Source: Escherichia phage HMD-6
Strand: one strand, 5' to 3'
DNA length: 64,000 nucleotides
Sequence record: PQ505080.1
Both the position numbers and the translations under genes were made by a program. Positions within the stretch are counted from its first letter, which is position 1, and each line of letters opens with the position of its first letter. Below are positions 43,486-44,475 of this stretch, piece after piece. The notes beneath the pieces are model-generated. The model was not told the DNA's origin. It saw only the letters and a program-made list of their open reading frames with translations, and did no database searches.

Positions 43486-44475
43486 TTATTTAACGTGCTT
43501 GAAAATACCAGCCAACTCGGTCATTGTCATGCGAGTGGTCTTCATAAGGTCTGTCATAGCCTTTTCCATGATTGGAGATACTACCATAAAGTTACCCTTG
43601 GTGAAACCTTTATTCCAGTCGGTCACTAATAGTGGTTTAAGTCCGACCCCGAGACGCTCACCAGTTAAAGCACAACATTTTCGAATGTACGTGCTCTTAA
43701 ATTGACTGAATGATAGATCAACTTTCATACCTGCATCGTAGAACGTCTGACAATAGAAAGTGTAAGCTTTGGCAATCTCAACATCGTCAGGCAGTGCAGG
43801 AACCTCTTCTGTGAGCTCTTCTTCGTCCCCTTGAGGCTCTTTTTCCTCTTCGTAAGCCTGTTGCGTCATCTCTTCAATCTCCTCTACTACAGGCTCGTTT
43901 ACAATGTCAGAAATGTGCTTGTTGGCTCCACGGTTAGCCATGAAGTTTTTAAAATCCTGCATTGGTGACATATCTTCCTCCCATTCTTCGTCAAAGAGTG
44001 CCAGTTTATCCTCTTCCGTCCCATATTGCAAGATGAAATCTTCAAAAGTGTAATCACCTTTCAATTTCTCCATGCGCTCTTCGCTCAGGTGGAGCATCAT
44101 CTGCTGGACAATTTTTCGATCAGTTTTGTCTTTAATCAAGATTGCGGTCTTTTTATCTACCAGGCAGTCTTTCAGAGAGTTACACCTCAATCCTACCACA
44201 CAACAGTTATCAATTGCGTAAGGACCTTCATCATCTATCCGCTCCAGAGATGGGTAGAAAGGATTCCCCAGCCCGTTTTCATCTGTGTGCATGTCGAAAG
44301 GTATAAGGGTATAGTCGCATACCCCCTCTCCTAAAAGTTTTTTACCAAATAGGAGGTATTCTTCCCATGACAGGTTGAACTCTATATCTCGTTTCCGTGC
44401 ATTATTTTGTTTGCGTCTGTATTTTTTGAGCAGGCGCTCTAACTCTTCTGGTGTATAATATTTTTCAAGATTCAT
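43486..44475 (-). CDS. first gene of leftward operon: protein with internally duplicated Cys-containing module (possible His-Me/HNH-like nuclease fold)
   Basis: Track ORF to 44541 (TTG), which lies upstream of the predicted promoter, so ATG 44475 is preferred. N-terminal module 'ARKRDIEFNLSWEEY ... PSLERIDDEGPYAIDNCCVVGLRCNSLK', an acidic linker, and a degenerate second copy 'YIRKCCALTGERLG...'. Confidence 0.45.
   Translation of the reverse strand: MNLEKYYTPEELERLLKKYRRKQNNARKRDIEFNLSWEEYLLFGKKLLGEGVCDYTLIPFDMHTDENGLGNPFYPSLERIDDEGPYAIDNCCVVGLRCNSLKDCLVDKKTAILIKDKTDRKIVQQMMLHLSEERMEKLKGDYTFEDFILQYGTEEDKLALFDEEWEEDMSPMQDFKNFMANRGANKHISDIVNEPVVEEIEEMTQQAYEEEKEPQGDEEELTEEVPALPDDVEIAKAYTFYCQTFYDAGMKVDLSFSQFKSTYIRKCCALTGERLGVGLKPLLVTDWNKGFTKGNFMVVSPIMEKAMTDLMKTTRMTMTELAGIFKHVK

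Follow-up and report, generated by a model that had tools for sequence, protein, structure and literature searches.

His-Me finger group 20 (Jablonska et al. 2017), whose founding member is the restriction enzyme PacI, is mostly viral, includes proteins of giant viruses, and has no Pfam model. In this group, the catalytic His is absent and a Tyr of the omega loop takes its place. In its main lines, the published account of PacI describes a homodimer in which each active site cuts one strand, an Asp and an Asn bind the metal, with the Tyr placed as the general base. Another relevant protein is Srd of phage T4, which is described in outline as binding the N-terminal catalytic half of RNase E and stimulating the RNase E-dependent decay of host mRNA. 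In the rV5 genome paper, gp11 of that phage was considered "probably a Srd homolog" on the basis of PSI-BLAST. A literature search revealed neither functional data on rV5 gp11 nor a published link between Srd and PacI or His-Me fingers. Here, the homologue of rV5 gp11 from Escherichia phage HMD-6 was analyzed. It is encoded at positions 43486-44475 on the minus strand of a 64,000-nucleotide stretch of the sequence record PQ505080.1 (this whole stretch is called the window), and the name gp11 is used below for the HMD-6 protein.

The comparison of gp11 with its homologues and with known structures suggests that its N-terminal part is a His-Me finger of the PacI type with a PacI-like active site that is apparently intact, followed by a helical extension, an acidic linker, and a second copy of the module in which the catalytic residues are replaced. 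Taken alone, this structural and evolutionary description, which covers the fold, the homology to PacI and Srd, the conservation, the duplication, and the synteny, can be accepted with high confidence. The parts of the gene are as follows (AF2, AlphaFold2; pLDDT, predicted local distance difference test):

43486..44475, minus strand: coding sequence of the rV5 gp11 homologue, 329 aa plus the stop codon.
44155..44448, minus strand: N-terminal PacI-type beta-beta-alpha-metal module (N-module), residues ~10-107, pLDDT >90.
44170..44250, minus strand: putative catalytic core SLERIDDEGPYAIDNCCVVGLRCNSLK, residues 76-102, supported by the PacI alignment and by conservation in 147 N-modules.
44026..44154, minus strand: alpha-helical extension after the N-module, residues 108-150, with AF2 helices at 117-129, 132-138, and 144-151.
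43792..44025, minus strand: acidic, largely disordered linker, residues 151-228, net charge -21.
43489..43791, minus strand: C-terminal degenerate copy of the module (C-module), residues 229-329, scaffold kept and catalytic positions replaced.

The AF2 model of gp11 was built from 12 homologues and has pLDDT values above 90 over residues 1-100. Its Foldseek matches in the PDB are mostly HNH nucleases, including PacI, McrA, the HNH domain of Cas9, Gme HNH, and Cap5. The original prediction, made from the letters of the window, had pointed to a His-Me finger or HNH-type core in the motif string ARKRDIEFNLSWEEY...PSLERIDDEGPYAIDNCCVVGLRCNSLK, which corresponds to gp11 residues 26-102, and had named similarity to a nuclease fold as a check; such similarity was indeed found. 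The core can be specified as a His-Me finger of the PacI subtype, whereas the canonical HNH variant does not apply, and no AP2, HNH, or other Pfam match was obtained. Scans of gp11 against Pfam, NCBIfam, and PADLOC assigned no family (for Pfam and NCBIfam, even at E<=10), and Pfam gave only noise for 51 module sequences and for the multi-module relatives.

At the sequence level, the similarity to PacI is seen with a profile. When the profile of 51 N-modules, T4 Srd included, was compared with PDB sequences, PacI was the sole significant one (E-value 2.9e-4, PacI residues 29-124), and its segment GVDRSDSFEGYSPQNARLACFICNRIKS was aligned to the family consensus psleRidnskgYslgNvvlvtkkaNklK. Single-sequence searches of the PDB sequences produced only noise for gp11 and no match for T4 Srd. 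In the profile alignment, residues E78, R79, Y86, N90, N99, and K102 of gp11 correspond to D92, R93, Y100, N104, N113, and K116 of PacI. R79 occupies the position of the canonical His, as R93 does in PacI, and Y86 is aligned with Y100; both are conserved in 147/147 N-modules. The acidic position aligned with D92 is E in 126/147 and D in 21/147 N-modules, and the position aligned with N113 is N in 142/147 and H in 5/147; judging by this alignment, E78 and N99 are the probable metal ligands. The replacement of His by Arg was also considered as a sign of an inactive module; this reading was dropped because PacI, the closest structure, has the same Arg and uses the Tyr.

The cysteines are a different matter. 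The residues C63, C66, C109, and C112 of a PacI zinc site correspond to C53, T56, G95, and C98 of gp11, and the two structural Cys4 zinc sites of PacI are not found in gp11. Of the Cys motif emphasized in the original prediction, only C53 is conserved in the family, while C91 and C98 vary, which leaves the motif weak. Judging by the aligned positions, the cysteines noted in that prediction are vestiges of a PacI zinc site.

Conservation was assessed in 147 divergent N-modules, that of T4 Srd among them, and in 151 C-modules, taken from the top representatives of clusters at 50% identity. The residues found at each position are given below, with gp11 numbering.

E78: E or D in 100% of N-modules; F, Y, L, or W in C-modules.
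R79: R in 100% of N-modules; V or I in C-modules.
Y86: Y in 100% of N-modules; V, I, or F in C-modules.
N90: N in 100% of N-modules; N in 93% of C-modules.
N99: N in 97% of N-modules; Q, G, or A in C-modules.
K102: K in 97% of N-modules; L or M in C-modules.
C53: C in 99% of N-modules; C in 91% of C-modules.
T56: T or S in 97% of N-modules; T or S in 99% of C-modules.
D81: D in 73% and N in 15% of N-modules; D in 84% of C-modules.

All six PacI-type residues in the N-module combined with no more than three of them (<=3/6) in the C-module were found in 140/144 proteins with two modules. Since the fold survives without these residues in the C-modules, their invariance in the N-modules points to a catalytic rather than a structural constraint. 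The only one of the 144 proteins with two complete sets is P0167 (295 aa), which has DRYNNK in both copies and may represent the ancestral state with two active sites. Two other relatives, P0123 (852 aa) and P0150 (827 aa), contain four copies of the module in one chain.

In gp11 itself, the C-module retains the scaffold residues C (at the module position of C53), T, D, and N, and has L, V, F, E, and M at the equivalents of E78, R79, Y86, N99, and K102. The duplication is visible only at the family level, by means of profiles. The Smith-Waterman alignment of the two modules of gp11 scored 21 against a shuffle mean of 23.9, no better than shuffles. However, the comparison of N- and C-module alignments with hhalign gave the expected register (P 0.0027), and a hidden Markov model (HMM) made from N-modules only recognized 62/144 C-terminal halves at E<1e-3, against 0/144 for both reversed and shuffled decoys. 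In addition, jackhmmer seeded with the C-module pulled in the N-modules of all relatives, the N-module of T4 Srd matched the C-modules of several relatives, and the order of secondary structure elements is identical in both halves of the AF2 model. All this argues that the duplication is real, and the degenerate second copy supposed in the original prediction is thereby borne out. The same applies to the acidic linker, which contains 26 D/E and 5 K/R residues; its AF2 pLDDT is below 50 for residues 165-227, and its length varies among the homologues, and the helical extension is conserved within the close family. That the second copy appears catalytically dead, and that the first is related to T4 Srd, are points which go beyond that prediction.

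The relationship with Srd is limited to the module. When the gp11 family and 14 T4-type Srd proteins were compared by hhalign, only residues 12-105 of gp11 and 8-91 of Srd were aligned (probability 97.3, E-value 2.2e-11). In these Srd proteins, E64, R65, Y72, N76, and N85 are invariant, and R88 occurs where gp11 has K102. Homology beyond the N-module was sought by comparing the C-module profile with the C-terminus of Srd and was not detected (P 0.35-0.5). In the AF2 model of T4 Srd, only helices follow residue ~93, in contrast to gp11 with its second beta-beta-alpha unit; the assumption that the Srd C-terminus is a homologue of the gp11 C-module was ruled out by both the profile comparison and this model. 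Thus, gp11 can be called a relative of Srd at the level of the module only, and the transfer of the RNase E mechanism by analogy is possible and weakly grounded.

The 8 kb surrounding gp11 share 94-97% identity with Vequintavirus phages of Escherichia (FV3, rV5, and their relatives), and the translation of the gene is 91-99% identical to a protein in 117 phage records, with about 121 records containing the region. The locus is kept in essentially all vequintaviruses, and other Vequintavirinae genera have it at 37-39% identity. Database labels conflict, being "anti-sigma factor", "HNH endonuclease", "anti-termination protein", or hypothetical. In PHROGs, full-length gp11 falls into phrog_3118, "HNH endonuclease" (E-value 1e-111), and its N-terminal ~100 residues also match the families endonuclease, endonuclease VII, "decoy of host sigma70", and Srd with E-values of 1e-9 to 1e-13; Srd scores no closer than the families labelled as endonucleases. 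At E<=1e-3, an exhaustive profile search for the module gave 11,563 protein clusters, and 483 of these reached E<=1e-10. Structural neighbours in BFVD are phage "anti-sigma factors", phage HNH endonucleases, and proteins of giant viruses (Pandoravirus, Medusavirus, Pithovirus, and Tupanvirus), and this taxonomic spread equals that described for His-Me finger group 20. The gp11 gene is also present at 93-97% identity in 16 GenBank records named "Campylobacter phage" (MG065644-MG065690; host Campylobacter jejuni). In these records, the region around the gene is more than 90% identical to that of E. coli vequintaviruses, and the host labels look doubtful.

The open reading frame at 43486-44475 is a genuine gene of 329 codons, with ATG at 44475 and the stop codon TAA at 43486-43488. 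A longer variant starting from TTG at 44541 was rejected because this codon lies upstream of the -35 box and the added N-terminal extension is not conserved in more distant homologues. The following signals adjoin the gene:

44507..44535, minus strand: sigma-70-like promoter with an extended -10 element, TTGACA (44535-44530), a spacer of 17 nt, and TGnTAAGAT (ending at 44507).
44482..44487, minus strand: Shine-Dalgarno-like AAGAGA, 6 nt before the gp11 ATG, read from the sequence.
43465..43481, minus strand: GC-rich hairpin with a 7-bp stem, within the 33 nt that separate the gp11 stop codon from the Shine-Dalgarno sequence and ATG of the next gene.

With this promoter directly upstream, transcription is predicted to start near 44500, and the promoter-proximal place given to the gene in the original prediction holds. 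A second, divergent promoter-like site, TTGACT...TATAGT, is located on the plus strand. The GC skew changes its sign exactly in this divergent promoter region (window ~44500-44750), following the switch of the coding strand.

A similar arrangement can be noted in distant relatives. In Cronobacter phage GAP31 (Seunavirus), the homologue, 39% identical to gp11, is again the first gene past a divergent junction. It has a TTGACA-17-GATAAT promoter upstream and a large gene downstream, at the position of the DUF2201-type gene of the window, and MoxR belongs to the divergent unit. In L005 and L006, unrelated metagenomic phage contigs with homologues at 22% and 34% identity, the gene lies at or next to a divergent junction, with a consensus-like sigma-70 promoter directly upstream and a long run of small open reading frames after it. 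Counting the window, four lineages have such a promoter immediately before the gene, mostly where two divergent units meet and with a run of small genes behind it; together with the rV5 genome paper, this suggests early expression. The GC content of gp11 equals that of the neighbouring genes, and a six-frame HMM scan found no paralogues in the 64-kb window or in the T4 srd region. Being syntenic, promoter-proximal, similar to its neighbours in composition, and devoid of paralogues, the gene does not look like a homing endonuclease gene, and its setting suggests early expression by the host polymerase.

The gene following gp11, 41992-43452 on the minus strand, encodes a DUF2201_N putative metallopeptidase with a DUF2201 VWA-like domain, and a DUF2201 gene is found near the gp11 homologue in L006 as well. 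In the divergent rightward unit, the gene at 47115-48299 (plus strand) is a MoxR ATPase according to related records; in the window, it has only a sub-threshold Pfam AAA_14 match. A MoxR/VWA-type pair thus appears to be split over two divergent units. The first divergent gene, 44618-45517 (plus strand), is called "putative alpha 1-3 fucosyltransferase" in related records and has no Pfam match at E<=0.001. The hairpin between gp11 and the DUF2201 gene (43465-43481, or L001 9466-9482) is perfect, AGGGGCC-AAT-GGCCCCT on the plus strand, with a folding z-score of -2.45. Its pattern occurs nowhere else in the window, where chance alone would give 0 occurrences, and the U-tract after it is weak. Instead of a full terminator, it may be an attenuator or an element of mRNA 3'-end formation or processing. 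A strong hairpin, AAAGGGGCC-GTTT-GGCCCCTTT with a T-run after it, is located at window positions 37181-37202, where the leftward unit has its far end, and matches the bidirectional terminator placed between genes 26 and 27 in the rV5 paper. Palindrome avoidance in the window was examined as a possible hint to a site-specific DNA nuclease, and only a generic depletion of GC-rich 6-mers was observed.

We propose that gp11 may be an immediate-early, metal-dependent endonuclease with a single active site that acts on host nucleic acid, and we give this proposal about an even chance of being correct. From the features described above, we infer its catalysis, substrate, early timing, and biological role as follows. 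The host RNA polymerase would transcribe the gene from the strong sigma-70 promoter, so that gp11 would be the first product of the leftward unit. The protein would be an intramolecular pseudo-dimer of the PacI-type His-Me finger. In the site of the N-module, E78 and N99 would be the metal ligands, with R79 at the His position; the loop residue Y86 would act as the general base or nucleophile, N90 would have a structural role, and K102 would complete the set. The C-module, having kept the fold and lost the catalytic residues, would supply binding of the substrate or of a partner, and the modules are joined by the helical extension and the disordered, strongly acidic tether, which would be a flexible or autoinhibitory spacer. 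Since there would be one active site per chain, gp11 would not cut both strands as PacI does; with Mg2+ or Mn2+ as the cofactor, it would be a nickase or an endonuclease for single strands, possibly of RNA. Its target during the first minutes of infection would be host nucleic acid, and it would contribute to host shut-off, much as Srd accelerates host mRNA decay; such an attack on the host is plausible.

Several points weigh against the proposed endonuclease. A literature search found no nuclease assay for any member of the clade, and the representatives used for the conservation analysis were picked by profile match, which inflates conservation somewhat. The two Cys4 zinc sites of PacI are not conserved apart from C53, so that gp11 may be unlike PacI in stability or activity. 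If the first product were a non-specific DNA nuclease, the phage DNA would be threatened too, and we know of no mechanism protecting phage DNA from such a nuclease. The mechanism of Srd, as outlined in print, is protein-protein activation of RNase E and not catalysis by Srd, and since only the N-module is common to both proteins, the biology of Srd may not transfer to gp11. If it does, gp11 could be an adaptor which binds and stimulates the catalytic N-terminal half of RNase E, so that host mRNAs decay faster, with no cleavage of its own and with the "active-site" residues serving for binding. This agrees with the homology of the N-module to the Srd family (the hhalign result above, and an E-value of 1.3e-9 for the Srd PHROG), with the activity outlined for Srd, and with the location of T4 srd among host-takeover-type genes, gp11 itself standing behind an early-type promoter. 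However, the homology ends at the module, and the C-terminal ~155 residues of Srd are unrelated to the extension, linker, and C-module of gp11. More than 11,000 protein clusters contain the module, with endonuclease as the label of many, and gp11 is no closer to the Srd PHROGs than to the endonuclease PHROGs. The strict conservation of the positions of the metal ligands and general base would also be unexpected for a pure binding surface. We regard the adaptor as unlikely. A bolder idea is that all proteins of the "Srd / anti-sigma factor" clade, which comprises thousands of clusters, are active tyrosine-dependent His-Me nucleases, and that T4 Srd is one of them. This seems somewhat less likely still; if true, host shut-off by these proteins would be enzymatic, and gp11 would be a fused live/dead pseudo-dimer version of such an enzyme. 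For example, cuts leaving 5'-monophosphate ends could license RNase E, and the "RNase E activation" by Srd would then be downstream of catalysis.

Many small phage HNH-type enzymes act on phage DNA, and the apparently intact site, one per chain, would suit nicking. Hence, gp11 could be a nuclease with another target, either nicking or processing phage DNA in replication or recombination or destroying host defence-related nucleic acid as a counter-defence. We consider this improbable, as no replication or packaging genes adjoin it, the next gene being the DUF2201 metallopeptidase/VWA gene, no PADLOC match was obtained, and a takeover function is favoured by the place right behind a sigma-70 promoter, where the gene opens operons of small genes. 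A homing endonuclease, either free-standing or, as suggested in the original prediction, domesticated, would be compatible with the His-Me finger fold and with the records that say HNH endonuclease. Nevertheless, the gene is found at >=90% identity in 117 of the ~121 records with the region, keeps its locus throughout practically all vequintaviruses and, at 37-39% identity, in other Vequintavirinae genera, being syntenic in Seunavirus at 39%, and does not differ from its neighbours in GC content. The window contains no paralogue, the protein lacks the canonical His, and no close relatives lacking the gene and having an intact cleavable site at the locus were seen. Such an origin is very improbable. 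Even harder to credit is the idea that gp11 is an anti-sigma factor, sigma decoy, or anti-terminator. It is favoured only by annotation, inherited from an old postulate of "similarity with rpoD" made for T4 Srd, whose action was later shown to be on RNase E, and no homology to sigma factors or known anti-sigma domains was found. The transcription takeover mentioned in the original prediction thus finds no evidence here. Overall, gp11 is more likely a host-takeover nuclease than an "anti-sigma factor".

The gp11 gene is carried by rV5-like phages, many of which are candidates for therapy or biocontrol, and its labels contradict each other, the commonest, "anti-sigma factor", being without support. 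The gene and the family are already present in databases, and some members are auto-labelled "HNH endonuclease". According to the literature search, the assignment to the PacI-type His-less, Tyr-dependent fingers, its extension to T4 Srd, and the fused live/dead, zinc-poor architecture are apparently unpublished. For a takeover gene that is presumably immediate-early, a PacI-type His-less module with an intact-looking site offers a concrete mechanism. One may also ask whether T4 Srd, now regarded purely as an activator that binds RNase E, has enzymatic activity of its own. The tandem of a live and a dead module is a clear natural case of the fold of a dimeric restriction enzyme turned into a monomer with a single active site.

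When gp11 is compared with known systems, it differs from the canonical phage HNH endonucleases (Pfam HNH, HNH_3, and Endonuclease_7; I-HmuI and T4 endonuclease VII) in having neither the catalytic His nor the CxxC...CxxC zinc site, in lacking a match to the Pfam HNH families at E<=10, and in not showing the sporadic distribution of homing-type genes. T4 Srd (NP_049634) shares with gp11 the homologous N-module with the invariant E-R...Y...N...N, the origin from a virulent E. coli myophage, and the label "anti-sigma factor"; however, it is a protein of 248 aa with an all-helical C-terminal part of ~155 residues and has neither a second module nor an acidic linker. PacI resembles gp11 in the beta-beta-alpha-metal fold, including the N-terminal helices, and residues 29-124 of its 142 can be aligned (PDB 3ldy/3m7k). 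In both proteins, the catalytic His is absent, and Asp/Glu-Arg is followed by Gly-x-Tyr, then Asn, and then Asn-x-x-Lys. PacI is a homodimer of 142-aa subunits with two Cys4 zinc sites per subunit and cuts both strands at TTAATTAA, whereas gp11 is a single chain of 329 aa with one live and one dead module and an acidic disordered linker between them, and it keeps two of the four cysteines of the aligned PacI zinc site, one of the two being conserved in the family.
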